DNA of 64,000 bases from Anaerolineales bacterium. GTDB lineage: Bacteria > Chloroflexota > Anaerolineae > Anaerolineales > DRMV01. Shown piece by piece: positions 4,393 to 62,719 of the stretch. Numbering within the stretch: position 1 is the stretch's first letter; each line of letters begins with the position of its first letter. The position numbers and the translations under genes were made by a program. The stretch is from assembly GCA_027053355.1 (NCBI GenBank), contig JALUDX010000195.1:846-64845 (forward strand), in the 5' to 3' direction. The notes beneath the pieces are model-generated. The model saw nothing but the letters and a program-made list of their open reading frames with translations, made no database searches and was not told the origin of the DNA.

Positions 4393-4413
4393 GGCGGTTT
4401 CTCTATTTCGGAG

Positions 4414-4619
4414 GTAACTATTCAGCCACAAGGAAATAGATCACGGATAACACGGATTTTTAGGTCGCCAAGGTCGCCAAGATGACGCCAAGGCCGCCAA
4501 GAAGTGATGGCGAGCGTGGGCTTTTTAGTGTTTTTCGCCCAATCTGCGCTCATCTTTGGGTCTCTTTCGGCGTAATCTGCGAAATCTGTGGTTTCTTCTT
4601 GCCAAGGCTGAACAGTTAC
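4414..4619 (+). mobile_element. type-A MITE-like element (206 bp), complete
   Basis: TIRs GTAACTATTCAGCC / GGCTGAACAGTTAC. Flanking 8-mers are TTTCGGAG (4406..4413) and TTTTGGAG (4620..4627), matching 7/8. About 90% identical by eye to the copy at 54005..54210. No ORF. Confidence 0.8.
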
Positions 4620-4689: not shown

Positions 4690-4698
4690 TGGTATAAT
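4690..4698 (+). promoter_or_regulatory. candidate extended -10 promoter TGGTATAAT
   Basis: Exact TGnTATAAT. The same 9-mer class recurs upstream of four other genes in the window. It would transcribe through the repeat fragment toward the DUF951 gene. Confidence 0.4.
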
Positions 4699-4737
4699 TC
4701 AAAAGGAACGCAAAGATGTTGCCTTCCGCTGCCCGCA

Positions 4738-4926
4738 CTACGGATAGCCACGGATGCTCACAGATTTTCAGGTCGCCAAGTCACGCAAAGGGACACAAAG
4801 ACACAGAGAGGGATACGCTAAAATGACGCCAAGCGCCAAGGCGTTGCTAGTATTTTTCGCCCAATCTGTGCCAATCTGTGAAATCTGTGGACGTTTTTCT
4901 GCGAAATCGGCGTAATCTGCGGTTTA
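4738..4926 (+). repeat. type-A-like repeat fragment lacking both TIRs
   Basis: Shares CGGATAGCCACGGAT, GACGCCAAG/GCGCCAAG words, TTTTTCGCCCAATCTGTG and AATCTGCGGTTT with type A but has no GTAAC..GTTAC ends. Confidence 0.55.
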
Positions 4927-5182: not shown

Positions 5183-5755
5183 TTAGCCTTCGTCCTCGGC
5201 AGGCGCCGCTTCCGCAGGCGGCGGGGCCTCTTCGGCCGCGGCGACTTCTTCGGTTTCGGGCAAAGGCGTGGCCGCGGTGCGCAAGGCGTCGTCCAACGTT
5301 TGCCCTTCTTTGTGCATCCCCGGTGCGGGGGTGCCGCAATAGGGGCAGATGTTCCACGACAAATCCATCAACTTGCCACAATGGTGGCAGGCTTTTTTGA
5401 GCCGGGTATGGCAGTGTGGGCAGAGGATCCAATCTTCTTTGACCCGGCGACCGCAACCCGGGCAGCGGGTGGTTTCCTCCACGGCTTGCAGCAGCGCCTC
5501 TTCTTCCAACGTGCGCTGATATTCCTCGTCCAAGGTGCGCGCGGGGCGCAAGATGAGGTAAACCAGCAGGCCGGGCAACGAAAGCACGGCCACCAACAAA
5601 GCCGCCAAAATCGGCGCCAACGGGTCGCGGCCGCGAGAACGCATATCGCGATACGCCCAAAACACCAAACTGACCCACAGCGCGGCCAAAAAAGCGCCGC
5701 CCCAGCCGGTCACCAACAAAAGCAATCTGCGTGCCAACGTCGGGTCGAGCCCCAT
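5183..5755 (-). CDS. membrane-anchored double zinc-ribbon protein
   Basis: Start at MGLDPT. Two TM helices, then CPGCG...CPHCH...CHHCG...CPYCG and an acidic Ala/Pro/Glu tail. The upstream 238 codons of ORF 5183..6469 are antisense to radC and were rejected. Confidence 0.6.
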   Translation of the reverse strand: MGLDPTLARRLLLLVTGWGGAFLAALWVSLVFWAYRDMRSRGRDPLAPILAALLVAVLSLPGLLVYLILRPARTLDEEYQRTLEEEALLQAVEETTRCPGCGRRVKEDWILCPHCHTRLKKACHHCGKLMDLSWNICPYCGTPAPGMHKEGQTLDDALRTAATPLPETEEVAAAEEAPPPAEAAPAEDEG

Positions 5756-7136: not shown

Positions 7137-7316
7137 GTCACCATTCAGCCGTCGAAAAACTGCCCGCGGCTGAACACGGATAATGACGGATAGCCGCGGA
7201 TTTCGGGGCGCCGAGGGCATCAAGAGAAGCACCGGAGTAACCAAGCACCATTTACCTCAACACCTCCCGCCTTCTGTGGTTTACGGTCTGCGTCATCCGG
7301 AGGGCTGAACAGTCAC
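7137..7316 (-). mobile_element. type-B MITE-like element (180 bp), inverted orientation, internally shortened
   Basis: Ends GTCACCATTCAGCC / GGCTGAACAGTCAC. The interior is the reverse complement of the 19226..19458 copy (GGATAATGACGGATAGCCGCGGATTTCGGGGCGCCGAGGG). Flanking 8-mers CCCCAGGC / CCGCAGGT match 6/8. Confidence 0.7.
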
Positions 7317-7353
7317 CCGCAGGTACGCCCCTTCCCCATTCAGGAGGGAACCC

Positions 7354-8289
7354 ATGCACATCGCCATTACCGGTGGCACCGGCCTGATCGGGCGGGCGCT
7401 GGCCGACCATCTGCTGCGCCACGGCCATCAGGTCACCATTTTCACCCGGCGGCCTGAGCAAGCCAGGCCGAAAGTGCCCGCGCCGGCAACCATTGCCCGC
7501 TGGACGCCCGAGGACCCGCGCACCTTGGCCCAACACCTGCGGCCTGTGCAAGCGGTGGTGCACCTGTTGGGCGAAAACATCGCCGCAGGCCGCTGGACAG
7601 CCCAACGCCGCCGCGCGATTTACGACAGCCGCATCCAGGGCGGCCGTACCCTGATGACCGCCCTCCGCCTCGCGCAGCCCCGCCCCGCGGTGCTCATCCA
7701 GGCCTCGGCGGTGGGCTACTACGGCGACCGGGGCGACGAAATTTTGGACGAATCCGCGCCCCCGGGCGACGACTTCCTCGCCCGCCTGTGCGTGGACTGG
7801 GAAAACAGCACCGCTGCCGCGGAAAACTTGGGGATGCGCCGGGCAATCATCCGCACCGGGGTGGTGCTCAGCCGCGACGGCGGCGCGTTGCCGCGGCTGC
7901 TCCTGCCCATCCGCTTGGGCGTGGGCGGCGCGTTGGGCTCCGGCCGCCAATGGATGCCTTGGATTCACCTCGCGGACGAGGTCGCGGCGATCGCCTTCCT
8001 GATAACCCACGAGCAAGCCCGCGGAGCGTTCAACCTCACCGCGCCCGAACCCGTCACCAACCTGGAACTCACCCGCGCCATCGCCCGCCGGTTGCACCGC
8101 CCGGCCTTCTTCCGCGTGCCCGCGGTCGCCCTGCGCCTGCTCTTCGGCGAGATGAGCATGGTGTTGCTTTCCAGCCAGCGCGCCGTGCCCCGCCGCCTGC
8201 AGCAGGCCGGGTTCACCTTCCGCTACCCCACCCTCGATACCGCGCTGGAGCACCTGCTCAGCCCCGCCCAACCCACCGAGGCCCCATGA
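7354..8289 (+). CDS. TIGR01777/YfcH-type NAD-dependent epimerase-like protein (DUF1731 C-terminus)
   Basis: Rossmann ITGGTGLIGRAL at the N-terminus and a C-terminal GFTFRYPTLDTAL. Confidence 0.8.
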   Translation: MHIAITGGTGLIGRALADHLLRHGHQVTIFTRRPEQARPKVPAPATIARWTPEDPRTLAQHLRPVQAVVHLLGENIAAGRWTAQRRRAIYDSRIQGGRTLMTALRLAQPRPAVLIQASAVGYYGDRGDEILDESAPPGDDFLARLCVDWENSTAAAENLGMRRAIIRTGVVLSRDGGALPRLLLPIRLGVGGALGSGRQWMPWIHLADEVAAIAFLITHEQARGAFNLTAPEPVTNLELTRAIARRLHRPAFFRVPAVALRLLFGEMSMVLLSSQRAVPRRLQQAGFTFRYPTLDTALEHLLSPAQPTEAP

Positions 8290-10231: not shown

Positions 10232-10380
10232 GGCTCCTCCTCGGTGCTTGGGTGCTTGGGTGTTTGGGAACTCGGGTACTTGGGCGCCTCTCTTGGCGGC
10301 TGGCGTTTCTGTGCGCCTCCGCGCCTATCCGCCATCATCCGCGCTTGTCCACGGGCCATTTCCCAAAGGCCGCACCGTTA
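10232..10380 (+). repeat. type-B element right half (left end missing)
   Basis: GGTGCTTGGGTGCTTGGGTGTTTGGG microsatellite-like module, then CCGCGCCTATCCGCCATCATCCGCGCTTGTCCACGGGCC, ending in a degenerate right TIR GGCCGCACCGTTAC (10367..10380). Confidence 0.6.
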
Positions 10381-10436
10381 CGATTATAATAGAAACTGCG
10401 CCCAAACGACCGATTCCCGTCCCCAAAGAGAACACC

Positions 10437-11363
10437 ATGCCCACTCGCCACGCGGTAAGCATCAGCCTGGGTAGCGCCAAGCGCGACAAAAAGGTGCGCG
10501 TGCAGTTCGGCGACACCACCGTGATCATCGAACGCATCGGCACCGACGGCGACGTCGAGGCCGCCAAGCGCCTCTACCGCTCATTGGATGGCAAAGTCGA
10601 CGCCTTCGGCATGGGCGGAGTAGATCTGTACATCCGGGTGGACGACCACAAATACCCGCTGCGCGCCGCGCACCGGCTCATCGAAGGGGTGAGCAAAACC
10701 CCGGTGGTGGACGGGCAAGGCCTCAAACACACGTTAGAGCGTCGCGTCTTCTCCCTGGTGCGGCCGCAACTGCGCGCGCCGTTGCACTTTCGCCGCGCCT
10801 TTATGCCCTTAGCGCTCGACCGGGTAGGGCTGGCGCGCGCGGTCGACGAAATCGCAGACGACGTCGTGTTCGGCGACTTCATGGTCGGGTTGGGGCTGCC
10901 CATTCCGGTGCGCGGGCTGACCACGTACATCCGCTTACTCAAACGCTTCTTGCCGCTGGTGGGTTTCTTCCCCCTCAGTATGCTGTTCTACGGCAGCGAC
11001 GGCGTCGAATTCCAGCCCAAATACGAAAAATACTGGGCGCAAGCGGACTTGATTGCTTGCGATTTCATGTTCATGAAAAAATACATGCCGCCGCACCTGC
11101 TCGAAGGCAAGACCTTGGTCACCAACACCACCACCGAGAGCAACGCCGCCTTTTTGCGCGCCCACGGCGTGCACCTGCTCATCACCACCACCCCCCGCTA
11201 CGACGGTCGTTCGTTCGGCACCAACATGATGGAAGCCGCGCTCACCGCGTACGCGGGCAAAGGCCGTCCCCTGACCCTCGAGGAACTCAACGCGCTGATC
11301 GACGAACTGGATCTTCGCCCCACGGCCACTTACCTGCAAGAGGAATCCGCACCGTCCGTCTAA
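10437..11363 (+). CDS. conserved protein of the family often annotated quinate 5-dehydrogenase (function unverified)
   Basis: Start at MPTRHAVSISLGSAKRD. The pattern SISLGS.KRD...IERIGTDGD...LDGKVDAFGMGG.DL matches that family as recalled. No Rossmann motif seen. Confidence 0.45.
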   Translation: MPTRHAVSISLGSAKRDKKVRVQFGDTTVIIERIGTDGDVEAAKRLYRSLDGKVDAFGMGGVDLYIRVDDHKYPLRAAHRLIEGVSKTPVVDGQGLKHTLERRVFSLVRPQLRAPLHFRRAFMPLALDRVGLARAVDEIADDVVFGDFMVGLGLPIPVRGLTTYIRLLKRFLPLVGFFPLSMLFYGSDGVEFQPKYEKYWAQADLIACDFMFMKKYMPPHLLEGKTLVTNTTTESNAAFLRAHGVHLLITTTPRYDGRSFGTNMMEAALTAYAGKGRPLTLEELNALIDELDLRPTATYLQEESAPSV

Positions 11364-15020: not shown

Positions 15021-17435
15021 TCACGGCAAACCCAGCACCCGAACCAGCAGCGCCGACATTTCGGCGCGCGTCACGGCCTGGTAGGGGCGGAAGGTGCCGT
15101 CCCCGTAGCCGGTGACAAAGCCTTCCTGGTGCAGGGCTTCGATCCAGTCCGCACCCCAGTAGTTCGCGATGTCCGAGAAACTGTACGCACTCACGTGGGG
15201 CGGCGTATAGTCTGCGCCGTGCTCTGCCCGCAGCAGGAACACCGCCAGTTCACCGCGGCTCAGGCTCGCGTCGGGGCGATAGGTGCCGTCGGGGTAGCCC
15301 AAGGTGATGCCGTCGTTGCGCAGCGCGGCGATCCAATCTTCAGCCCAGTGGCCGGCCGTATCGGGGAACGCGGGCTCCACATCAGGTGGTGTGAAGGATT
15401 GGGGATAGTGCATGGCCCGTTCCAAAATGGCTGCGGCCTCGCCGCGCTTGATGCCCTGGTCGGGGTGGAAGGTGCCGTCGGGATAGCCTTCTACCACGCC
15501 GTCGGCCCACACGCTGCCAATCCAGGGGAAGGCCCAGTGTTCCACCGGCACGTCGGAGAAGGGCAAAAAGACCACGGTCTGCAGGCCGTCTTCTTCCACC
15601 CCCACGAAGAGATAGCCGGCGCGGCGGGCAATGGCCACAGCCCGCCCCGCGGTGGGGAAATAGCCAACTTCGACGGGCGCGGCGGGGTCTGAAATATCCA
15701 TCGCCCACACGCCGCCCTCGCCCGCGGCCAGGTAGGCATAATGCCCCGCCACGGTGAGCGCCCGCGCCTCGCCCAAGGTGGCCGCGGAGCCCGCAAAACC
15801 CGGGTGTTGCGGGTCGCTGACGTTCAGCACCTGCAGGCCGTCGCTGCCATCGGCTACAAAGGCATAATCGCCCACCACCACCGTTTGCCAGGCCCAGCCG
15901 TCGGTGTCGTAGGCGCCGATTTCCTGGGGGTGGGCAGGGTCGGAGACGTCGACGATGTGCACCCCGGCCTCTCCGGCGCTCAGGTACACCAAGTTCCCCA
16001 CCACGGTGACGCCCACCACGTCGCCAGGGGCCTCCAAGGCACCCACTTCGATGGGGGAAGCGGGGTTGCTGAAGTCTACCACCCGCAGACCGCCGCCCGC
16101 GCCCGCGGCCACGTAGACCAAAGCATCCTGAACGGCCACTGCCCGTACCCACCCCGGCGCGTCGTAGAACCCCAATGCCTGGGGCGCATCGGGGTGGCTG
16201 ACGTCCACGGCCCATACGCCCTTGCCGTCGGCCACGTAAACCCGGCCCTCGCCGGCCGCGGTCACGCCCAGCCCCCGCCATGGCTGCGTGACACTGCCTT
16301 CGGCCACGAAGCGGTTGGGCGGGTGGAACGAAAGCACCCGCAGGCCGGGCGAATTGTCGGTCAGGTAAAGGTAATTGCCCGCCACGGCCAGGCCCATCCC
16401 CGCGCCCAGGCTGGGCAGCACGCCCACCCGTTGCGGCGCGGTGGGGTTGGTCGCATCGACGATCTGCAGGCCCTCGTCCCATTCCGCCAGGTAAACCGTG
16501 TGCCCTTGTGCGGCCACGGCTGCCGCGAAGTCGGGCAGGTCGAGGGTGCTGCGCAGGGAGGGGCGGGCGGGGTCGTGGACGTCGAAAATGCGCAGGCCGT
16601 CGAAAGAATCGGCCACGTAGGCGTAGCCATCGACCAAAACCACCCGCTGCGCCCAAGCCGTACCGCCGGTGGAGGCCACGGCCTGAGGGTGAGCGGGGTC
16701 GCTGATGTCGATCACTCGGAAGACGTCCGCATCCAAAACAAAAGCATAGGGCGACGCCAAGGCCAAATCTTCCACCCAGCCGGGGGTGTCGTAAATGGCC
16801 AAAAGGCGCGGGGCCGTGGGATTGCTCACGTCGACCACCACCACGCCGACGTCGCCCGCGGCGACGTAAACCGTCTGTCCGTCCACCGCCACGTGGGCCG
16901 CGTTGGGGATGCCCATGGTCGCCAGCCGCTGCGGCTGGCTGGGGTTGCTGACATCGACCACGCCCAGGCCAAAGTTGGGGCCGACCACGTAGGCTTTGTC
17001 GCCGGCCACGGCCACGCCGGTGGTCAGGCCCGTGGTGGTGTCGCGGCCCAAGGGGGTCAGCGTATCGCCCTGCCGCAGGAGCACTTGCAGCCCGGCTGCG
17101 CCCAGCGCGGCGTAGACGTGGTCGCCGCTAATGGCCAGGTCTTTGACCACTCCGGCCAGCCGCGGGGAACGCCCCACCACCTGGGGTGCGGCAGGGTCGG
17201 CAGCGTCGACTACCAAAATTTGCGCGCCCATGCCCAAAAGAATGCGGCCGTCGGCCCACACGATGGCTTCAGAATCTCCGCCCGTGTGCGCCACCGACTG
17301 GATGTGTTCGCCGCCGCTTGCTTCGGCCTGGGCACGGGGCGCCTGCGATGCCCGCGCGGCGGTCCCCCGACTGCCCCAAACCAAAGCCAACATGAGAAGA
17401 AGAAAACACCAAGGGAGATGTTTGCGCTGCATCAT
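15021..17435 (-). CDS. secreted LVIVD-repeat beta-propeller protein with three C-terminal SLH domains
   Basis: Signal peptide, then more than 10 repeats of the type AYVA....GL.V.DVS.P..P, and three SLH repeats at the C-terminus. ATG at 17435 or 17432 preferred over the TTG at 17444 (GGAGG just upstream). Confidence 0.8.
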   Translation of the reverse strand: MMQRKHLPWCFLLLMLALVWGSRGTAARASQAPRAQAEASGGEHIQSVAHTGGDSEAIVWADGRILLGMGAQILVVDAADPAAPQVVGRSPRLAGVVKDLAISGDHVYAALGAAGLQVLLRQGDTLTPLGRDTTTGLTTGVAVAGDKAYVVGPNFGLGVVDVSNPSQPQRLATMGIPNAAHVAVDGQTVYVAAGDVGVVVVDVSNPTAPRLLAIYDTPGWVEDLALASPYAFVLDADVFRVIDISDPAHPQAVASTGGTAWAQRVVLVDGYAYVADSFDGLRIFDVHDPARPSLRSTLDLPDFAAAVAAQGHTVYLAEWDEGLQIVDATNPTAPQRVGVLPSLGAGMGLAVAGNYLYLTDNSPGLRVLSFHPPNRFVAEGSVTQPWRGLGVTAAGEGRVYVADGKGVWAVDVSHPDAPQALGFYDAPGWVRAVAVQDALVYVAAGAGGGLRVVDFSNPASPIEVGALEAPGDVVGVTVVGNLVYLSAGEAGVHIVDVSDPAHPQEIGAYDTDGWAWQTVVVGDYAFVADGSDGLQVLNVSDPQHPGFAGSAATLGEARALTVAGHYAYLAAGEGGVWAMDISDPAAPVEVGYFPTAGRAVAIARRAGYLFVGVEEDGLQTVVFLPFSDVPVEHWAFPWIGSVWADGVVEGYPDGTFHPDQGIKRGEAAAILERAMHYPQSFTPPDVEPAFPDTAGHWAEDWIAALRNDGITLGYPDGTYRPDASLSRGELAVFLLRAEHGADYTPPHVSAYSFSDIANYWGADWIEALHQEGFVTGYGDGTFRPYQAVTRAEMSALLVRVLGLP

Positions 17436-17500: not shown

Positions 17501-17750
17501 GTAATTGTTCAGCCTTGGGAAAATAGGCCGCGGATGAACGCGGATCATTCCGGATAGCCGCGGATTCAAGCGCGGCGTAGGGCAGGGCGTCATCCCGCCC
17601 AGCCCAAGGGAGGCGAGACAGTGTGCCGCCAACACAGGCGCGCAAAGCAAAGAGAGATTCTGTGTTTTCTGTGCCTTCTCTGTGGCTTCTGTGTTTTTCT
17701 GTCTGCGGCATCGAGATTTCTCTTTTGTTTGCACTGAACGTTACATTTAC
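17501..17750 (-). mobile_element. type-B MITE-like element, inverted orientation
   Basis: Left end GTAATTGTTCAGCC. Canonical-like right end GCACTGAACGTTAC at 17731..17744. If the element extends to 17750, the flanks ATTAGGAG (17493..17500) and ATTAGGGG (17751..17758) match 7/8. Confidence 0.65.
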
Positions 17751-17804
17751 ATTAGGGGACAAATTTTGGGGCACCGGGCACACCACGACATGGCAACGTG
17801 TCGC

Positions 17805-17894
17805 CGGCCTGTGCCAATCTGTGAAATCGGTAGATGTTTTTCTGCGAAATCTGCGAAATCTGTGGTTTCTCCTCAGTCAAGGCCGAATCGTTAC
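17805..17894 (+). repeat. type-A right-half fragment
   Basis: GTGCCAATCTGTGAAATCGG...CTGCGAAATCTGCGAAATCTGTGGTTTCTCCTC...GGCCGAATCGTTAC parallels the right third of type A. Confidence 0.55.
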
Positions 17895-18109: not shown

Positions 18110-19168
18110 TTACGGCACCGGCACCACCGCGTCGTAATTGTAAAACCAGTTGTACGCGTAATACGGCGTCACCAGGCTCTGCAAACGAATGGCAATGCGC
18201 TGTTGATTGGCCAACGCCGGCGGGATGGAGAACTTGGTCTCTTTCAGGTGCCCCTGGTCATCGGTCTCGACCGTGGCCACCTGCCAACCGCCCACGCCGT
18301 AAGTGCCGTAATAATTCATCAGCACCGCGTATTTGTCGTTGGGCGGGAAGTTGTGCCCCTTGATGACCACGAAATCGTTGCGCTCCACCTGGGCGATGAA
18401 GAAATAAGGATACCCCGGCGGGCCTACGACCGGCGTTGCGCCACCGCTTCCGCCGCTGCCGGTGGTGTTGTTGTAAAACCAGTTATAGGCGTAATAATGG
18501 GTGGTGGGGCTTTCCAAACGGATGGCAATCCGATACTGCCCTGCCAACGCCGAAGGAATGGAAAACGTGGTCTGACTCAAAGCGCCGTTAGCGTCGGTGG
18601 TCACCGTCGCCACCTCCCAACCGCCAATGCCATAGGTGCCGTAGTAATTCATCCGCACCACGTAAGTGTCGTTGGGCGGGAAATTGTGCGGCGCGATGGT
18701 TACCTCCTGATCCTGCTTTACCGAGGCGATCGAAAAAGTGGGATAGCCCACGTATCCGCTCCCTCCGCTGCCGCCAGCGGCCACGTTGTAAAACCAGTTG
18801 TAGGCATAGTAACCGCTGGTGGGGCTTTCGAGGCGGATGGCGACGCGCGACAAATGCGCCCAAATCGGGGGGATGTTGAAGGTCGTGCTGCTCAAATGAC
18901 CTTGCGCGTCCGTGGTCACCGTGGTGACGTAACAGCCGCCAATGCCATAAGTGCCGTAAGGCCCCATGTAGACGTTGAACGTGTCGTTAGGGGGGAAGTT
19001 ATACGGCTGAATGGACACCGTATTGCCCGGATCAACGGACGTGATGGTGAAACACGGGTAACCGCAATAGGCGGCAACAGCCGAATGGATGAAAAAGCCG
19101 CTGCTCAACACCAGGGCCAACACCAGCATCACCACCCACAGTTTGGAAAAACGAACCGAGCGTTGCAT
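18110..19168 (-). CDS. secreted protein made of three tandem ~105-110-aa repeats (unknown family)
   Basis: Signal peptide and strong RBS AGGAGG. Each repeat carries YP.F.I..V......I....NFPPND.....M..YGTYG.GG..V.TV.TD..G.L....F.IP......RIAIRL.S.....YAYNWFYN, separated by G/S linkers. Confidence 0.75.
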   Translation of the reverse strand: MQRSVRFSKLWVVMLVLALVLSSGFFIHSAVAAYCGYPCFTITSVDPGNTVSIQPYNFPPNDTFNVYMGPYGTYGIGGCYVTTVTTDAQGHLSSTTFNIPPIWAHLSRVAIRLESPTSGYYAYNWFYNVAAGGSGGSGYVGYPTFSIASVKQDQEVTIAPHNFPPNDTYVVRMNYYGTYGIGGWEVATVTTDANGALSQTTFSIPSALAGQYRIAIRLESPTTHYYAYNWFYNNTTGSGGSGGATPVVGPPGYPYFFIAQVERNDFVVIKGHNFPPNDKYAVLMNYYGTYGVGGWQVATVETDDQGHLKETKFSIPPALANQQRIAIRLQSLVTPYYAYNWFYNYDAVVPVP

Positions 19169-19225: not shown

Positions 19226-19458
19226 GTGACTGTTCAGCCTCTACGGATGACGCAGGCAGAAAACCACAGAGAACACAGAAAGCGGGAAGTCAAGGCGTGA
19301 TGCGGGATGCGGGAAGAGGTGAGGTGCTAAAGGGTTGGTTGGTTGGTTGGTTGGTTACTCAGGCACCTCTCCTGACGCCCTCGGCGCCCCAAAATCCGCG
19401 TCTATCTGCCATCATCCGCGTTCATCCGTGGGCTGTTTTCCAAAGGCTGAACAGTTAC
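19226..19458 (+). mobile_element. type-B MITE-like element (233 bp), complete reference copy
   Basis: TIRs GTGACTGTTCAGCC / GGCTGAACAGTTAC. Perfect 8-bp direct repeat AATCTATG at 19218..19225 and 19459..19466. Contains (GGTT)6 at 19333..19356. No ORF. Confidence 0.88.
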
Positions 19459-19517
19459 AATCTATGTACAGATTACATCAAAAAGCCCAAAAATGCAAGG
19501 GGGATAACTGAGATCCG

Positions 19518-20701
19518 GACATGAGTTAGGACAAAAAAGGGAACCTCCTGTAAATTGTTTTATAGAAAAAACACCACACACAAGGAGGTTCCCTATGTAC
19601 AAGTATAAACGAATTTCCTTGGAACGCTTCGCCCATTACTTGTTTGATAACACTCATGAGGCACAACACGCCGCTGAGATTCTCGCCGCTATCTTGCACG
19701 CTCGCTCAGCACGCTTGACTGAGATCGCTGCCAAAATGCACGGCTCTATGGATGCCGCCTATAAACGCTTGCAACGCTTTCTGCAGCGCCACGACCCACG
19801 CACTGCCTTGTGGCGTCTTTTACCCGATGATGCTCCCTTTGTGTTGGCCGATGTGACCGAGATCCCCCGCCCTCAAGCCTATAAAACCAACTATGTCGGC
19901 ACCTTGAAAGACGGCCACACCAAAGGGTTTTGGGTAATGACATTCGCCACCCCTTATCGGGGGCGGGCCATACCCTGCGGTTTGCTCACCTTTTCCTCCG
20001 CCACCATCGCCCAAAAAGACGGTTCCCGCAACTTGGTGCATCAACGGGCTTTTGAGAGTTTGAAAGACCTGTTGGGTGAGCGGCCGGTGGTTTTAGATCG
20101 GGAATTCAGTTATTCGGGCCTGCTCCAATTTTTGACAGCAGCGGGCGTCCATTTCGTTATCCGTCTGCGACTGGGCTCCCGCCCGCCCAAGTTCTTTGAT
20201 GACGAAGGGAGCGAGGTCAAACTGAACATTGCCCGAGGGCAACGGGTGGTGTACCGCAACCTGTGGTACAAAGGCGAAGTGCAGGTGCAGGTCATTGGCG
20301 AATGGAGAGCGGGCCAACCCGAGCCGCTATGGGTGATCACAGACTTGGCGCCGGAGCAAAGCTTGGCCTACTACAAACAACGGATGAAGATAGAGGAAAG
20401 CTATCGTGATCTGAAAAGTCTCTTGGGGATGGAGCGGGTGATGAACAAACGGCAGGAATACATGGAGAAGGCACTTGCATTGGTAATGTTGGCGTATGCA
20501 ATTGCGCTGATGGTAGGCGAGAAACTTCGCGATGCAATGTTTGGCAATGCTAAAAGGACGAGCAAGTGGCGGCGCTATTCGGGAGCCTTTATTTTGTTGA
20601 AGGATTATTGGTCAATACCAACCCGCCTTTACAAAGAGGCGTCTAAACAAGCCTTGAGCGCCTTTGCTGATTTGGTTCTACCTCATGTCCTAACTCATGT
20701 C
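19518..20701 (+). mobile_element. IS4-superfamily-like insertion sequence (~1.18 kb)
   Basis: 16-bp perfect terminal inverted repeats GACATGAGTTAGGACA (19518..19533) / TGTCCTAACTCATGTC (20686..20701) bracket a single DDE transposase gene. Visibly lower G+C than the flanks. No clear target duplication found. Confidence 0.8.
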
Positions 20702-20704
20702 TGA
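19595..20704 (+). CDS. DDE transposase (IS4/PF01609-like)
   Basis: 369 aa with candidate catalytic D in LADVTEI, D in VLDREF and E in RMKIEESYRDLKSLLG (the R..IEE.F/Y..LK signature of DDE_Tnp_1). RBS AAGGAGG. Confidence 0.8.
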   Translation: MYKYKRISLERFAHYLFDNTHEAQHAAEILAAILHARSARLTEIAAKMHGSMDAAYKRLQRFLQRHDPRTALWRLLPDDAPFVLADVTEIPRPQAYKTNYVGTLKDGHTKGFWVMTFATPYRGRAIPCGLLTFSSATIAQKDGSRNLVHQRAFESLKDLLGERPVVLDREFSYSGLLQFLTAAGVHFVIRLRLGSRPPKFFDDEGSEVKLNIARGQRVVYRNLWYKGEVQVQVIGEWRAGQPEPLWVITDLAPEQSLAYYKQRMKIEESYRDLKSLLGMERVMNKRQEYMEKALALVMLAYAIALMVGEKLRDAMFGNAKRTSKWRRYSGAFILLKDYWSIPTRLYKEASKQALSAFADLVLPHVLTHV

Positions 20705-20756
20705 ACTTCAGGCGCAACATCGCTAAAACGTACCCCCAATCCTATTCGCGGCCTAT

Positions 20757-20785
20757 TTGACGCAGCCGACCGATACAAGTATAAT
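20757..20785 (+). promoter_or_regulatory. sigma-70-type promoter TTGACG-17 nt-TATAAT
   Basis: -35 at 20757..20762 and -10 at 20780..20785 with an exact 17-nt spacer, 62 nt upstream of the DUF4388 gene ATG. Confidence 0.6.
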
Positions 20786-21677: not shown

Positions 21678-21816
21678 GTAACTGTTCGACCTCAAAGAGA
21701 AACTACGAATAACGCAGACAGAAAACCATGTTAACTCCTTAGCGCCCTAAACTCCGCGTCTATCCGTCATCATCCGCGCTCATCCGCGGGCTGTGTTCCA
21801 AAGTTTGAACATTTAC
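21678..21816 (+). mobile_element. short type-B MITE-like element (139 bp)
   Basis: Ends GTAACTGTTCGACC / GTTTGAACATTTAC. The interior matches both arms of type B with the central part missing. No TSD detectable. Confidence 0.65.
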
Positions 21817-41162: not shown

Positions 41163-41195
41163 TTCGGGTGCGAGGCAGCCACGCTCGTGCAAAAA

Positions 41196-41223
41196 GGCGT
41201 AGCCGGGCGGCTACGCCTTTTCT
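41196..41223 (+). terminator. intrinsic terminator
   Basis: 9-bp stem GGCGTAGCC/GGCTACGCC with loop GGGC, then TTTTCT. It lies 34 nt after the stop. Confidence 0.8.
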
Positions 41224-41290
41224 ACCTGTTTGTAACCGTTCAGCCTCGAAGAGACGCTACGGATAACGCAGGCAGAAAACCACAGAAGAC

Positions 41291-41682
41291 GTAATGCATA
41301 ATCAACCATGATAGTTGGTTTAGGCCTTTTGCAACTTGGCGCCCAAATTTTTGATCTCTCCCTACCCCGCTCCGGCGAGGCCTCGCCTTCGCTCAGCCTG
41401 CCGGAGCCGCCCCCTTTCCTCCCTTACTTGCACTTTGACAAATTGTTACGACAATCCGAGGCTATGGCCTGGGCCGGTCTCCCCTCTCCCTCTGGGAGAG
41501 GGGCCGGGGGTGAGGGCGTAAAAAGCCCATTGGCTTAGCGCCCTCACCACTCCCCCGGACGCCGCCCAGCGGCGTCCGGGGGAGTGGTGAGGGCGAGCAA
41601 GGTGTAATGCTGTTTCATGGCATGGCAGAGTTATTGGAATATTGCTTGTCAACCTCGTTTTCGGAGCAGGGCAGGTAGTTAC
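41291..41682 (+). mobile_element. nested non-coding element (392 bp) with GTAA...TTAC ends and perfect 8-bp TSD
   Basis: Flanked by CAGAAGAC at 41283..41290 and 41683..41690. Starts GTAATGCAT and ends GGTAGTTAC. Carries G/C-rich hairpin modules. Confidence 0.8.
41539..41595. repeat. perfect 27-bp-arm inverted repeat (hairpin/cruciform)
   Basis: CGCCCTCACCACTCCCCCGGACGCCGC - CCA - GCGGCGTCCGGGGGAGTGGTGAGGGCG. Every arm position is complementary. Confidence 0.9.
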
Positions 41683-41840
41683 CAGAAGACACAGAAAGCG
41701 GGATGTGGGGAACGGGAAGTGGAATGCGGCCGTTGGCGTCATTTTGGGGCCTCGGCGCCCAAAAATCCGCGTCTATCCGCCATCATCCGCGTTCATCCGT
41801 GGGCTGTTTTCCAACCCAACAAGGAATGGCCTGACGACCC

Positions 41841-49489: not shown

Positions 49490-49526
49490 GCTGAAGAGTA
49501 CTCCTCGTCTTTGGTAGCCTCGACCC

Positions 49527-49666
49527 GGAGAAACCGCAGATTGCGCGGCTAAAAAGCGGAAAGCGAGGTGCGGAGGGATTGGGGGGTAGTTACTGGTTGC
49601 TTGGTTGGCTGGTTGCTTGGTTATCCGGGTCAGCCGCGGCCGATTTTCTCAAGGTTGAACAGTGGC
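49527..49666 (+). repeat. mosaic of repeat fragments (type-A end word, ..GGTAGTTAC end, type-B right half)
   Basis: GGAGAAACCGCAGATTGCGC, GGGGTAGTTAC, the TGGTTGCTTGGTTGGCTGGTTGCTTGGTT microsatellite-like module, and a degenerate right TIR GGTTGAACAGTGGC (49653..49666). Confidence 0.5.
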
Positions 49667-49804
49667 CGCGCCTCTGATTACCCGACACAAAAGCAATCGT
49701 GCCCCGGCCGTTGTTTCATTGACCGGCAGATCTCATCTCGTCATGCCAAATCTTTACAAAAGTCTTGTTTTTCACGCCCTCTCCTCTCCCCCCAAGCCGC
49801 CCCC

Positions 49805-49936
49805 CTTCGACTTCGCTCAGGGCAGCCTTCGACTTCGCTCAGGGCAGCCTTCGTCTTCGCTCAGGGCAGCCTTCGTCTTCGCTCAGGGCAGCCTTCGTCT
49901 TCGCTCAGGGCAGCCTTCGTCTTCGCTCAGGGCGGC
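49805..49936. repeat. 22-bp tandem repeat, 6 copies
   Basis: CTTCG(A/T)CTTCGCTCAGGGCAGC repeated head to tail with no spacers. The last unit ends GGCGGC. Confidence 0.9.
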
Positions 49937-49942
49937 GGCTTT

Positions 49943-49984
49943 CCCCCCTCCCCTCTCCCGCAGCAGCGGGAGAGGGGAGGGGGG
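49943..49984. repeat. perfect 19-bp-arm G/C-rich hairpin
   Basis: CCCCCCTCCCCTCTCCCGC - AGCA - GCGGGAGAGGGGAGGGGGG. Confidence 0.9.
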
Positions 49985-50075
49985 ATAAAAGGGGGGCGGG
50001 GTGAGGGTAAATGCAAAAGTTAGAAGTCTGCTCAAGTTTGTGTCGGGTAACCAGACCCCTTTCTCTGGAGCCGCC

Positions 50076-50849: not shown

Positions 50850-50898
50850 ACCACAGATCACACAGATTTCGCAGAAGGAAATCTGTGCAATCTGTGGT
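50850..50898. terminator. long hairpin between convergent genes, built from repeat-family words
   Basis: ACCACAGATCACACAGATTTC - 7-nt loop - GAAATCTGTGCAATCTGTGGT, with 19/21 positions pairing. Preceded by AAAAAA. Lies between the FAH stop (50846) and the M20 stop (50910). Confidence 0.45.
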
Positions 50899-54004: not shown

Positions 54005-54210
54005 GTAACTATTCAGCCACAAGGGAATAGACCACGGATAGCACGGATTTTTAGGTCGCCAAGGTCGCCAAGATGACGCCAAGACCGCCAAGAAGCGAGG
54101 ACGAGCGTGGGCTTTTTAGTATTTTTCGCCCAATCTGTGCTAATCTGTGAAATCTATGGTTGTCTTTCTGCATAATCTGTGGTTTCTTCTTGCCAAGGCT
54201 GAACAGTTAC
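54005..54210 (+). mobile_element. type-A MITE-like element (206 bp), complete
   Basis: TIRs GTAACTATTCAGCC / GGCTGAACAGTTAC. Same length as, and colinear with, 4414..4619. No TSD (flanks ACACAAGA vs GATAGGTC), possibly because it sits in a mosaic. Confidence 0.8.
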
Positions 54211-58335: not shown

Positions 58336-60177
58336 TCATTCCACAGTCACCGATTTGGCCAGGTTCCGCGGCTGGTCCACATCCAACCCGCGCATGGCCG
58401 CGATGTGATAGGCCAACATCTGCAAAGGCACCACCGTGACCACCGGGCTCAACAGCCAGGGCGTGGGCGGCACCCACAGCACTGCATCGGCCAAGGGCGG
58501 AATCAGGGTATCCCCTTCGGTCACCACGGCAACGACCGGCGCGCCCCGCGCCTTGGCCTGCTCTACCTGGCTCACCATTTTTTCGTACCAGGGGTCGCGG
58601 GGCGCGAGGGCGATGACCGGCGTTTCTTCGTCCAAGAGCGCGATGGGGCCGTGCTTCATCTCGCCCGCGGGGTAGCCCTCCGCGTGAATGTAGGAAATTT
58701 CTTTGAGTTTGAGCGCACCTTCGTAGGCGGTGGCCATGTTGATGCCGCGGCCGATGTACAGGCAACTGCGCACGTCTTTCAACTGCCGGGCGACCGCGAT
58801 CACCTCTTCCTCCCGTTCTAACACCTGGCTCACCAGATAGGGCACGAGGCGCAAATCGGCCACCAAGCGGCGGCGTTCCGCAGCGGGCAAGGTGCCCCGC
58901 AAATCGCCCAACAACACGGCCAGCATGTACAAATCCACCAAGGGCGCGGTGTAGGCTTTGGTCGAAGCCACGCCGATTTCGGGGCCCACTTGCATGGAAA
59001 TGTAGCCCTGGGCAATGCGCATGGCCTGGGAGCCAATGGCGTTGACGATCGACCACAGGGTCGCCCCTTTGCGCCGTCCCTCTTCCATCGCGGCCAAGGT
59101 ATCGGCCGTCTCGCCCGATTGGCTTATGGCTAACACCACATCGTCGGGCCCCACCAGGGGGTCGGCATAGCGAAACTCCGAGGCCACCATCACTTCCACA
59201 GGCACCCGCGCGATGCGTTCCAACAGGGTTTTGCCCACCAGCCCGGCGTGGTAAGCCGTGCCGCAGGCGGTGATGAAAATTTTGCGCACCCGGCGGGCAA
59301 GTTCCGGGGTCAGGTTGAGGGTGTCCAGATAAATTTTTCCGCCTTCGAAGTCGACACGGCCGGCAATGGTGTCGGTCAGGCCGCGCACCTGCTCGTGAAT
59401 TTCTTTTTGCATGAAATGGCGGTATTCGCCCTTTTCCGCCGCCACCGGATCCCACGGCACCACGGTCGGTTGCAGGGGCTGCGGGTTGCCGTCGAGATCC
59501 ATCAGGTGCACGGCATCCCGCTGCACCACCACCATTTGCCGCGGCTCTAAAAAGGCCACCCGCCGGGTATGCTCCAAAATCGCGGGCAGGTCAGAAGCCA
59601 CCAGCATTTCGTCCTCGCCCAGGCCCACCACAATGCCGCCCGCGTTGCCCAGCCGCGCGGCCACGATTTTGTCGGGCTCCAAAGCCGACATGACCACCAC
59701 CGCGTTGGAACCCTCCAACAATTGCAGGGTTTGGCGCACGGCCTCGACCAGGCCGGTCTCGCGGCTGAGGAAGCGTTCGATCAAATGGGCAATGACCTCG
59801 CTGTCGGTCTCGGAGCGGAAATGGGCGCCTTCTGCGGCCAGTTCGTCACGCAAGGCGAGGAAGTTTTCCACAATGCCGTTGTGCACCACCACCACTTGCC
59901 CGCGATCGCTCACGTGGGGGTGGGCATTGCGCTGCGAAGGCTCGCCGTGGGTCGCCCAGCGGGTATGGCCGATGCCCACATGGCCGCTCAGGGGTTGCGC
60001 TTCGACCAATGCCTGCAGGCGATGCAACTTCCCCACCGCGCGGCGCAATTGCACGCCCCGCTCGGTGAGCACGGCCAGCCCCGCCGAGTCGTAGCCGCGG
60101 TATTCCAACCGCTTCAAGCCGTTGAGGATGATTGGCGTCGCGTCTCGAGGCCCAATATAGCCCACAATGCCACACAT
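58336..60177 (-). CDS. glmS: glutamine--fructose-6-phosphate aminotransferase
   Basis: Start at MCGIVGY (Cys nucleophile must follow Met; RBS GGAGGTG 5 nt upstream). Two SIS domains, and the C-terminus ends AKSVTVE. Confidence 0.93.
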   Translation of the reverse strand: MCGIVGYIGPRDATPIILNGLKRLEYRGYDSAGLAVLTERGVQLRRAVGKLHRLQALVEAQPLSGHVGIGHTRWATHGEPSQRNAHPHVSDRGQVVVVHNGIVENFLALRDELAAEGAHFRSETDSEVIAHLIERFLSRETGLVEAVRQTLQLLEGSNAVVVMSALEPDKIVAARLGNAGGIVVGLGEDEMLVASDLPAILEHTRRVAFLEPRQMVVVQRDAVHLMDLDGNPQPLQPTVVPWDPVAAEKGEYRHFMQKEIHEQVRGLTDTIAGRVDFEGGKIYLDTLNLTPELARRVRKIFITACGTAYHAGLVGKTLLERIARVPVEVMVASEFRYADPLVGPDDVVLAISQSGETADTLAAMEEGRRKGATLWSIVNAIGSQAMRIAQGYISMQVGPEIGVASTKAYTAPLVDLYMLAVLLGDLRGTLPAAERRRLVADLRLVPYLVSQVLEREEEVIAVARQLKDVRSCLYIGRGINMATAYEGALKLKEISYIHAEGYPAGEMKHGPIALLDEETPVIALAPRDPWYEKMVSQVEQAKARGAPVVAVVTEGDTLIPPLADAVLWVPPTPWLLSPVVTVVPLQMLAYHIAAMRGLDVDQPRNLAKSVTVE

Positions 60178-60200
60178 GGTCACCTCCATGGCGTCTGATG

Positions 60201-60375
60201 GTATTCGGCAGCCTCAGGGAAGGGAAACCGCAGATTGCGCAGAAAAAATTTCACAGATTCGCCCCGATGAGGCGAAAACGTCACAAGGCACGGATCTCGC
60301 TCATGTCTTTCGGTGAAACAGTGTTCGAGAAATCCGTGTCGTCCGTGGTCTATTCCCTTGTGGCTGAACTGGGGT
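60201..60375 (-). mobile_element. diverged type-A-like element, inverted orientation
   Basis: GTATTCGGCAGCC...GGAAACCGCAGATTGCGCAGAAAAAATTTCACAGATTCGCC...CCGTGTCGTCCGTGGTCTATTCCCTTGTGGCTGAACTGG is colinear with the 62515..62719 copy but has a shorter centre and degenerate ends. Confidence 0.6.
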
Positions 60376-60684
60376 TCGCAAACGCCACGCCTGAGCGTTT
60401 TGTCCGCGGAATTACTTCCACGGCGTTGTGGCTCAGGTCGTCAATTCCCCCTGATGGTGGAGGGCCGGGGTGTGGCATCCCCGGGAGGGCATCCGCCGAT
60501 CCTTCGATTTTCCCGCCCGGTGGCTCCGAGCGGTTAGCCTTGCCTCGCGACAAGGAACCCTCATCCTCGTCACCCGCGCGCACGCGGGCCTGGCGCTCTT
60601 CCCTCCGATGGGTTGTCGTTTGAGATGGCACCTCCTGAAGGGTGGTTTGCGGGGTGATTGTATCACAATTCGCGGCGCTGGCCG

Positions 60685-62514: not shown

Positions 62515-62719
62515 GTGGCCGTTCAGCCCCGGCAAGGAGAAACCACAGATTGCGCAGAAGAACATCCACAGATTTCACAGATGAACACAAATTGGGCGAA
62601 AAACACTAAAAAGCCCACGCTCGCCCTCGCTTCTTGGCGGTCCTGGCGTCATCTTGGCGACCTTGGCGACTTAAAGATCCGTGTTATCCGTGGTCTCTTC
62701 CTCGCGGCTGAAGGGTTAC
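62515..62719 (-). mobile_element. type-A MITE-like element (205 bp), inverted orientation, complete
   Basis: Ends GTGGCCGTTCAGCC / GGCTGAAGGGTTAC. Perfect 8-bp direct repeat CCCCAAAA at 62507..62514 and 62720..62727. The interior is the reverse complement of 4414..4619. Confidence 0.85.

Follow-up and report, generated by a model that had tools for sequence, protein, structure and literature searches.

Do the short repeats that stand a few tens of nucleotides upstream of start codons in an Anaerolineales genome belong to the promoters or 5' untranslated regions (5' UTRs) of these genes, or do they lie there for other reasons? The question is raised by positions 60178-60375 of a 64,000-nt stretch of contig JALUDX010000195.1 (assembly GCA_027053355.1; the whole stretch is called the window below), which consist of a 23-nt spacer and a 175-bp copy of the repeat (element e10, 60201-60375) in front of the gene glmS. 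A reading made from the sequence alone had held that all such elements must be part of promoters or 5' UTRs, and had proposed the family as a set of dispersed regulatory or 5'-UTR modules. We find that the repeats are transposable elements of the miniature inverted-repeat type (MITEs), i.e. non-autonomous DNA transposons. The family is probably an ordinary one, whose copies would owe their closeness to start codons chiefly to tiny intergenic gaps and to AT-rich, promoter-like targets, with e10 a passenger of the glmS leader.

The glmS leader

The region is made up of the following parts:

58336-60177, minus strand: glmS, glutamine-fructose-6-phosphate transaminase of 613 aa with Pfam GATase_6/7 and SIS domains, homologues named GlmS
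60180-60187, minus strand: glmS Shine-Dalgarno GGAGGTGA, separated by 2 nt from the ATG at 60177 and placed inside the 23-nt spacer between MITE and start
60201-60375, minus strand: MITE e10 (175 bp), with degenerate ends GTATTCGGCAGCC / GGCTGAACTGGGGT and no target duplication left
60380-60608, minus strand: predicted glmS ribozyme, scored by Rfam RF00234 at 39.7 bits (gathering score 37) and matched over the full model (1-167 of 167)
60657-60665, minus strand: extended -10 box TGaTACAAT, a candidate promoter of glmS that lies some 50 nt upstream of the ribozyme

The N-terminus encoded from the ATG at 60177, MCGIVG, is conserved in all homologues, and the nearest named GlmS relatives are from Anaerolineae. 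The segment at 60380-60608 lies on the glmS strand, 4 nt beyond the far end of e10. With the cleavage-site AGCGCC, GACGAGGA and GGCGGAUGCC of the core all present, it is predicted to be a glmS ribozyme of the self-cleaving type that depends on glucosamine-6-phosphate. The order on the mRNA strand is -10 box, ribozyme, e10, Shine-Dalgarno and glmS, and e10 runs from its G-end at the ribozyme side to its A-end at the glmS side (both ends are defined below). Because the ribozyme and the -10 box lie upstream of e10, transcription should read through the element, and we infer that e10 is transcribed as part of the glmS 5' UTR. This position, sandwiched between a ribozyme and a ribosome-binding site, allows the transcription of a MITE copy to be deduced from sequence alone. 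It had been claimed that no promoter fits between the element and the ATG of either glmS or an M50 protease gene. For glmS the claim is borne out, with read-through as the consequence; it also holds for M50 and extends to an ABC permease gene, but it fails as a rule for the family.

Ribozymes also precede glmS in L154, L156, L158, L160, L080, L089 and L118 (related loci are given by their L numbers). The first four are closer relatives reached by protein search, with 91%, 89%, 88% and 84% GlmS identity, respectively. All four have kept the ribozyme, and the gap between it and the ATG is about 59-136 nt long and free of MITEs. In L158, which comes from a MITE-rich metagenome-assembled genome (MAG), the copies are instead located upstream of the ribozyme and downstream of glmS. 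The leaders of 80 metagenomic glmS loci (at most 74% identity) contained no MITE termini, and the ribozyme is often present there. In L154, L156 and L158, boxes resembling a -10 element (GGTATGAT, GGTAAGAT) stand in much the same place upstream of the ribozyme core, and L080 has a TATAAT closer to the core.

In contrast, L163 and L164, strains of 98% identity that come from other samples, carry e10 at the same site and, inside it, a nested 232-bp element of a second MITE family with the duplication GTGTAATC. The insert between the ribozyme and the ribosome-binding site is thus 175 nt long in the window and 415 nt in L163/L164. As e10 is absent from the relatives at 84-91% identity and its own duplication is lost, it must be both lineage-specific and old, and a tolerated passenger fits these data better than a selected module. 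The leader resembles other RF00234 leaders: its ribozyme precedes glmS, shares the strand of the gene and is conserved in relatives. It differs from them by the transposon relic in front of the Shine-Dalgarno, as the relatives have a unique spacer of about 24-190 nt. The natural series of 0, 175 and 415 nt offers a tool for asking how much structured RNA a ribozyme-controlled mRNA tolerates.

Two further observations were made in these leaders. A perfect Shine-Dalgarno-like box, AGGAGGTG (60629-60636, minus strand), lies between the -10 box and the ribozyme cleavage site. It is conserved 20-40 nt upstream of AGCGCC, also in L154, L156, L158 and L160, and is not followed by a start codon. It may serve as a 5' stabiliser, to be removed by ribozyme cleavage. 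In L087, a 71% relative, a palindromic array of CAGTRAT heptamers (~2890-2975) occupies the equivalent position between ribozyme and glmS; its heptamer-array hairpin differs from that of the MITEs.

Anatomy and distribution of the family

Alignment of 19 element termini from the window shows a 14-nt terminal inverted repeat (TIR) with the consensus GTAACTGTTCAGCC at both ends of the copies. Inward of the TIR lie about 10 nt of spacer, then between two and four CRCRGAT heptamers, and finally a variable core with CCAAG or GGTTGG micro-repeats. The heptamers, which are presumed transposase-binding sites, give the element a polarity: they read CRCGGAT at one end (the G-end) and CRCAGAT at the other (the A-end).

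To find relatives, an 18-mer from the element tip was scanned against one genome per species, which gave at least 71 stretches. About two thirds of those listed are from Chloroflexota, mostly from two Anaerolineales MAGs, and about one third are chance matches in unrelated phyla. The MAGs JALVOR01 and JALUXH01 contain dozens of family copies, and copies also occur in other Chloroflexota. A search with nhmmer detected 110 termini across the window and the loci. Pairing of the termini in the loci produced 40 pairs, and 35 complete copies were left after removal of the pairs above 1 kb and of two loci that are duplicates of the window. In 21 of the 35, the flanking 8-bp sequences match at six or more positions (8/8 in ten copies, 7/8 in seven and 6/8 in four), for which the chance rate is 0.6%. 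Within the window, such target duplications are clear at 19226-19458, 62515-62719 and 4414-4619.

The elements are mostly 135-430 bp long, contain no transposase gene, and number about 12 in the 64 kb of the window. "Pairs" of 480-930 bp exist as well, and those examined (e8, L033 and L068) hold nested elements of the second family. The copies fold end to end into hairpins (RNA fold z = -6.4 for e1 and -4.8 for e6). No Rfam family matches the repeats, and a permissive E-value applied to two elements returned no meaningful match. Finally, orthologous sites differ in the presence of the element, as e10 is present at 98% GlmS identity and above and absent at 84-91%. Given the TIRs, the duplications of fixed length, the small size, the dispersed copies and the site polymorphism, the repeats are MITEs.

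Six copies in JALVOR01 (L041, L052, L018, L009 at 5471, L029 and L013) share TGTTGTAGAAGC or variants of it just outside the TIR. This subfamily is either nested in another repeat or reaches past the canonical tip.

Distances to start and stop codons

In addition to e10, the window contains these copies:

4414-4619 (206 bp): e1, duplication TTTYGGAG matching at 7/8; 21 nt from the M50 protease ATG (4392, minus strand)
~4735-4925: e1b, a TIR-less relative; 31 nt upstream of the DUF951 ATG (4957) and downstream of a TGGTATAAT box at 4691-4698 (plus strand)
7137-7316 (180 bp): e4, duplication 6/8; 24 nt past a stop codon and 37 nt before the ATG of a YfcH-like gene
~10240-10381: e5, left end lost; TATAAT at 10385-10390 starts 3 nt beyond its right end; ATG at 10437
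17501-17894 (394 bp): e3, 68 nt upstream of the LVIVD-SLH protein start (annotated at 17432) and 215 nt past the stop of the next gene
19226-19458 (233 bp): e6, perfect duplication AATCTATG; 57 nt from the ATG at 19168 (minus strand) of a triple-repeat protein
21678-21816 (139 bp): e7, 11 nt past the DUF4388 stop (21666) and 34 nt before the GTPase ATG (21851)
41232-~41815: e8, right tip lost; a MITE of the second family nested inside; in a convergent 3'-3' gap
49507-49666 (160 bp): e9, 17 nt from the ABC-permease ATG (49489, minus strand), whose Shine-Dalgarno GAGGAG abuts the element
54005-54210 (206 bp): e2, 92% identical to e1; GGTATAAT box between e2 and the Mrp/ParA-like ATG (53849)
62515-62719 (205 bp): e11, perfect duplication CCCCAAAA; TrmH ATG 69 nt from its right end

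The distances were compared with the genes that ENA lists for a 100%-identical scaffold and with our own calls, which were made with a codon-usage model that reproduces most ENA calls but not all start codons. The DUF951 gene is called on the ENA scaffold (L001). The measured values are 23 nt for glmS, 21 for M50, 37 for the YfcH-like gene, 55 for the gene at 10437, 57 for the triple-repeat protein, 68 for LVIVD-SLH and 69 for TrmH. The element coordinates and distances of the sequence-only reading are thereby reproduced, as is the copy that it placed between the DUF4388 and GTPase genes. The exception is FAH, which had been counted as a family case at 35 nt. The element there, segment X, is single-copy, belongs to another family and ends 20 nt from the ATG. 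Three cases had been missed, namely the ABC permease at 17 nt, DUF951 at 31 nt and the copy in the convergent gap (41232-41815).

Distances to stop codons, which had likewise been missed, are equally short (24 nt at 7137 and 11 nt at 21678). In a sample of the window and 41 Chloroflexota loci, the median distance is 69 nt to 5' gene ends and 57 nt to 3' gene ends, and the start codon is closer than the upstream stop for 9 of the 21 elements in tandem gaps (p=0.66). Hence, the enrichment of short element-to-ATG distances that had been suggested as a check is not seen in this sample. Where no MITE is present, the median length is 85 nt for tandem gaps, 93 nt for convergent gaps and 188 nt for divergent gaps, and the short distances follow from this compact intergenic space, which confines any insertion that survives. 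There is a weak excess of element ends that face 5' gene ends (60 of 95, with 35 facing 3' ends, vs 52% expected from intergenic base pairs, p=0.04) and of copies in divergent gaps (10 of 33 vs 15% expected, p=0.02). Within the limits set by the sample size and the heuristic gene caller, the closeness to start codons is not a special effect.

Target sites and promoter positions

The mild excess in 5' and divergent gaps can be attributed to the target sites, as AT-rich, promoter-like targets appear to be preferred. The G+C content of the target duplications is 43%, lower than in intergenic DNA (56%) and in the loci as a whole (61%). When the empty sites were reconstructed, a -10-like box was found within 6 nt of the duplication in 8 of 21, vs 6.5% of random intergenic 20-mers (p=3e-5). 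In L053 the target duplication itself is GATTATAC. This adds a measurable link between insertion sites and -10-like boxes. The lineage appears to use clear -10 boxes: all nine TATAAT hexamers in the window are intergenic, each points at a gene, and they often read GGTAnAAT.

Three window copies have a -10 box between the element and the gene: TATAAT at 10385-10390 (e5), GGGGTACAAT at 62506-62501 on the minus strand (e11), and GGTATAAT at 53898-53893 on the minus strand, 107 nt downstream of the copy at 54005 (e2). The box at e11 starts exactly 8 nt, i.e. one duplication length, outside the left end of the element, and L023 and L032 have a -10 box at the same offset. As a strong -10 box sits between element and gene, e5, e11 and e2 should lie outside the transcript. 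The copies e5 (10381) and e11 (62515) would stand just upstream of a -10 box, in place of the old -35 region, and e2 well upstream of its promoter, while e8 (41232), placed just after a terminator-like hairpin (41186-41222), would lie behind a terminator in its convergent gap. The copies e10, e1b, e7 and e4 would probably lie inside transcripts: e1b is probably the 5' UTR of DUF951, and e4 (7137) and e7 (21678) are probably intercistronic. A TATAAT is found at 20780, upstream of DUF4388. Scans for consensus -35/-10 pairs around glmS, M50 and the ABC permease/FAH gap gave nothing useful, and single -10 boxes were more informative. The claim that the elements must be promoters or 5' UTRs thus stands for glmS and is plausible for two or three other genes, but is not supported for the family, given the three copies with an intervening -10 box and the convergent e8.

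Separately, we observed TATAAT or TACAAT followed by an ATG 6-7 nt further on in L023 (~4407-4422), L050 (~5395-5412) and L009 (~1100-1113). Such a spacing points to leaderless mRNAs as a common feature of this clade, in which case less room is needed for a promoter in front of a start codon.

Orientation and folding

The end that faces the gene start is the G-end in 21 cases and the A-end in 19, and in tandem gaps nine elements lie in the sense orientation and 12 in the antisense orientation. Orientation relative to the genes is thus random, which is not expected of a directional promoter or UTR module. Together with the 9 of 21 elements nearer to a start, these counts provide no positive evidence for the proposed dispersed regulatory modules.

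The two strands of the element differ in their folding. Of 31 complete copies from the window and loci L005-L073, 27 give a more stable fold on the strand that reads from G-end to A-end than on its complement (mean -12.3 kcal/mol, p=3e-5), because G.U pairs on one strand correspond to A.C mismatches on the other. The asymmetry bears no relation to the direction of the neighbouring genes. In e10 the folding has decayed (z = -2.2), and its strands are about equal at -57.7 and -58.2 kcal/mol.

How the elements came to lie next to start codons

The most probable course of events would be as follows. The elements would insert into AT-rich 8-mers, which in this lineage of 61-62% G+C are often -10 boxes or their immediate surroundings, and copies would survive only between genes. 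Since MITE-free gaps measure only about 50-190 nt, a surviving copy comes to lie within tens of nucleotides of a start or a stop. Depending on the site, it would then be carried in transcripts as 5' UTR or intercistronic RNA able to fold into a long hairpin, abut a -10 box with the former -35 region replaced, lie upstream of the promoter, or end up behind a terminator. The copy e10 would have landed in a spacer of 27-35 nt between the glmS ribozyme and the Shine-Dalgarno. It would now be a tolerated 175-nt passenger, presumably a neutral one, with transcription starting upstream of the ribozyme and reading through.

Could the elements instead be promoter donors, like the Correia elements of Neisseria? 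In that case, -35-like hexamers at the tips (TTGCCA / TTTCCA) would form outward promoters that drive the neighbours, and the one at glmS would bypass the ribozyme. TTGCCA / TTCCCA do occur 15-16 nt from the tips, and junction promoters can be assembled in L053 (CTGCCA-N16-TATAAT) and at e5 (TTCCCA-N19-TATAAT), most junctions being without a usable spacing. M50 and the ABC permease have neither room nor a -10 box outside the element (the gap 49490-50075 is all element and segment X), a weak TACCAT spans the e10/glmS junction, and Correia elements are known to generate promoters at their ends (PMC2649163). At e11, L023 and L032, however, the -10 box exactly 8 nt beyond the tip is separated from the -35-like hexamer by 23-24 nt, which is too long, a simple promoter scan found nothing in or at e1, e9 and e10, and either element end faces genes equally often. 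Furthermore, the ribozyme is intact beside e10 even in L163/L164, which have diverged enough to acquire another insertion, and this argues that it is still part of a functional transcript. We regard promoter donation as unlikely. Domestication as RNA modules, which corresponds to the dispersed 5'-UTR modules of the sequence-only reading and in which transcribed hairpins are kept because they act on the stability, processing or translation of the mRNA (as RNase III sites, as 5' stabilisers or by occluding the ribosome-binding site), would account for the stable end-to-end hairpins and for the better folding of one strand in 27 of 31 copies, a pattern expected if a single strand matters. Also, e10 is transcribed in the G-end-to-A-end orientation within the glmS mRNA, and RNase cleavage or protection is on record for Correia and ERIC elements (PMC2649163, PMC2229807). 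But in tandem gaps the better-folding strand is antisense in 12 copies and sense in 9, the hairpin of e10 has decayed, orthologous leaders at 84-91% identity do without the element, a second insertion of 232 bp into e10 was tolerated, and copies also occupy 3' and convergent gaps. The asymmetry may simply arise from left and right variants of the transposase site that differ by a transition. This makes a domesticated module very improbable.

A more radical alternative is that the repeats are not transposons at all but arrays of host binding sites, similar to REP/BIME or operator clusters, that organise the chromosome or its transcription. CRCRGAT arrays do recur, among them the stand-alone hairpin at 50850-50898 between convergent genes, and no transposase with the ends of the family was found in the window or the 71 related loci listed. 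Exact 8-bp duplications of unrelated sequence flank many copies, however, and contradict an array, nested insertions bear duplications of their own, and orthologous sites differ in presence and absence. Such arrays are thus extremely improbable. A last possibility is that the family targets promoters as such, at or upstream of the -10 box and perhaps as an open or bent complex, and that its asymmetric hairpin reflects a single-stranded intermediate or a functional RNA. We consider this distinctly unlikely; if true, the elements would systematically rewire -35 regions and 5' UTRs and even part a ribozyme from its gene, and the choice of AT-rich DNA would not be passive but a natural case of promoter-directed transposition in an uncultured Chloroflexota lineage.

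Several points weigh against an ordinary MITE family with e10 as a passenger. Promoter positions were placed by -10 hexamers alone. The gene-context statistics come from a sample and not a census, with a heuristic caller and 33-95 observations pooled from several MAGs. M50 (21 nt, no -10-like box) and the ABC permease have no recognisable promoter outside their elements; these two copies may carry the promoter that is needed and thus be more than passengers. Pure selfish-DNA neutrality does not explain the strand asymmetry (27/31). Neither an autonomous parent nor a transposase gene with the ends of the family was found in the window or the 71 related loci listed, where termini were paired up to 5 kb apart, 5 kb inward of solo termini were searched with up to 3 mismatches, and the adjacent open reading frames (ORFs) were compared with Pfam. 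All ORFs beside solo termini turned out to be housekeeping genes. The promoter-like target preference and the strand-asymmetric folding remain as leads.

Relation to known elements

The general point is not new, since it is well known that MITEs occur in promoters and leaders of Neisseria, enterobacteria and pneumococci.

Bacterial MITEs have been reviewed (PMC10969869) and counted in a census (PMC11602168). The present family resembles them in its size of 135-430 bp, its non-coding nature, TIRs, fixed duplications, many mostly intergenic copies and long hairpins, and also in that some copies are co-transcribed with neighbouring genes. It differs from those known in its TIR GTAACTGTTCAGCC, its end-specific heptamer arrays and its host clade of uncultured Anaerolineae. 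We found no paper that pairs "miniature inverted-repeat transposable" with Anaerolineae, the string "Chloroflex" is absent from the main text of the 2024 census (PMC11602168), and literature searches for MITEs of Anaerolineae or Chloroflexi, or for a MITE in a riboswitch leader, found nothing specific. The repeats are apparently an undescribed MITE family that is abundant in uncultured Anaerolineae and has a second family nested in it.

In function, the known element that comes closest is the Correia element (CREE/NEMIS). Its TIRs measure 26 bp, it duplicates TA, and it has an IHF site as well as promoters and RNase III processing that have been demonstrated (PMC2649163). Both families are dense in intergenic DNA close to start codons and use AT-rich insertion sites, some copies of both are co-transcribed, and the ends of Correia elements can supply promoter parts at the junction with the flank, as may those of the present elements. 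With a TIR of 14 nt and a duplication of 8 bp of varied sequence, the Anaerolineales elements do not qualify as Correia-type; they also have a random orientation and differ from Correia elements in demonstrated activities.

According to the passage on IS66 in PMC11946415 (citing Ross et al. 2021), the inverted repeats of this insertion sequence (IS) family are 20-30 bp long, start with GTAAGCG and are accompanied by 8-bp direct repeats. The ends of the MITE family likewise begin with GTAA and have an 8-bp duplication, but the TIR reads GTAACTG instead of GTAAGCG and has only 14 nt. An IS66-type transposase with the family ends was not found in the window or the 71 related loci listed. With the GTAAGCG hallmark lacking, IS66 ancestry is only a lead suggested by sequence features.

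A second MITE family and other repeats

The MITE nested in e8 belongs to a second family:

41287-41682: family-2 MITE inside e8, target duplication CAGAAGAC

This family has a TIR of about GTAATTACCTACCC, an 8-bp duplication and an internal G-rich GGGGAGTGGTGAGGGCG hairpin. Its sites are the one in the window, L163/L164 (~1207-1438), L068 (4273-4752) and L033 (2218-3117), all nested in a MITE of the first family. Both junctions that were read, in e8 and in L163/L164, show insertion within the heptamer array of the A-end, which suggests that the second family targets elements of the first. The copy inside e10 is polymorphic, being present in the 98%-identical strains L163/L164 and not in the window.

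Two further elements lie next to MITEs of the first family:

19510-20710: insertion sequence that encodes a DDE_Tnp_1 transposase (19595-20704), has inverted ends of its own (GACATGAGTTAGGAC) and adjoins the MITE at 19226-19458
49673-50055: segment X, upstream of FAH, whose inverted ends are 19 nt long (TCTGATTACCCGACACAAA) and which contains a 22-nt unit repeated seven times in tandem (CCTTCGTCTTCGCTCAGGGCAG) and a perfect hairpin of 20 nt

The IS was considered as a parent of the MITEs and rejected, as its ends are unrelated. Segment X was likewise rejected as a family member, since its inverted ends are different and no other copy exists in 164 loci; no target duplication is visible. Together with e9 it fills the entire divergent gap between the ABC permease and FAH (49490-50075). 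A MITE with a minisatellite is known from Porphyromonas gingivalis (PMC4596501), and segment X is similar in that its inverted ends enclose a 7 x 22-nt tandem repeat. Unlike that element, it is single-copy in the data examined and without a visible duplication.

The repeats also affect annotation, as they break metagenome assemblies, with N-gaps inside them, and draw spurious ORF calls. An N-run with duplicated flanks is present in the ENA scaffold L001 at 7302-7401 (window ~4755-4810), inside the TIR-less repeat, and an 84-aa ORF is annotated on the ENA scaffold inside the MITE at 17501-17894. Finally, the hairpin at 50850-50898 has 21-nt arms of CACAGAT heptamers (ACCACAGATCACACAGATTTC / GAAATCTGTGCAATCTGTGGT) without TIRs, and lies in a terminator-like position between the convergent FAH gene and the next gene.

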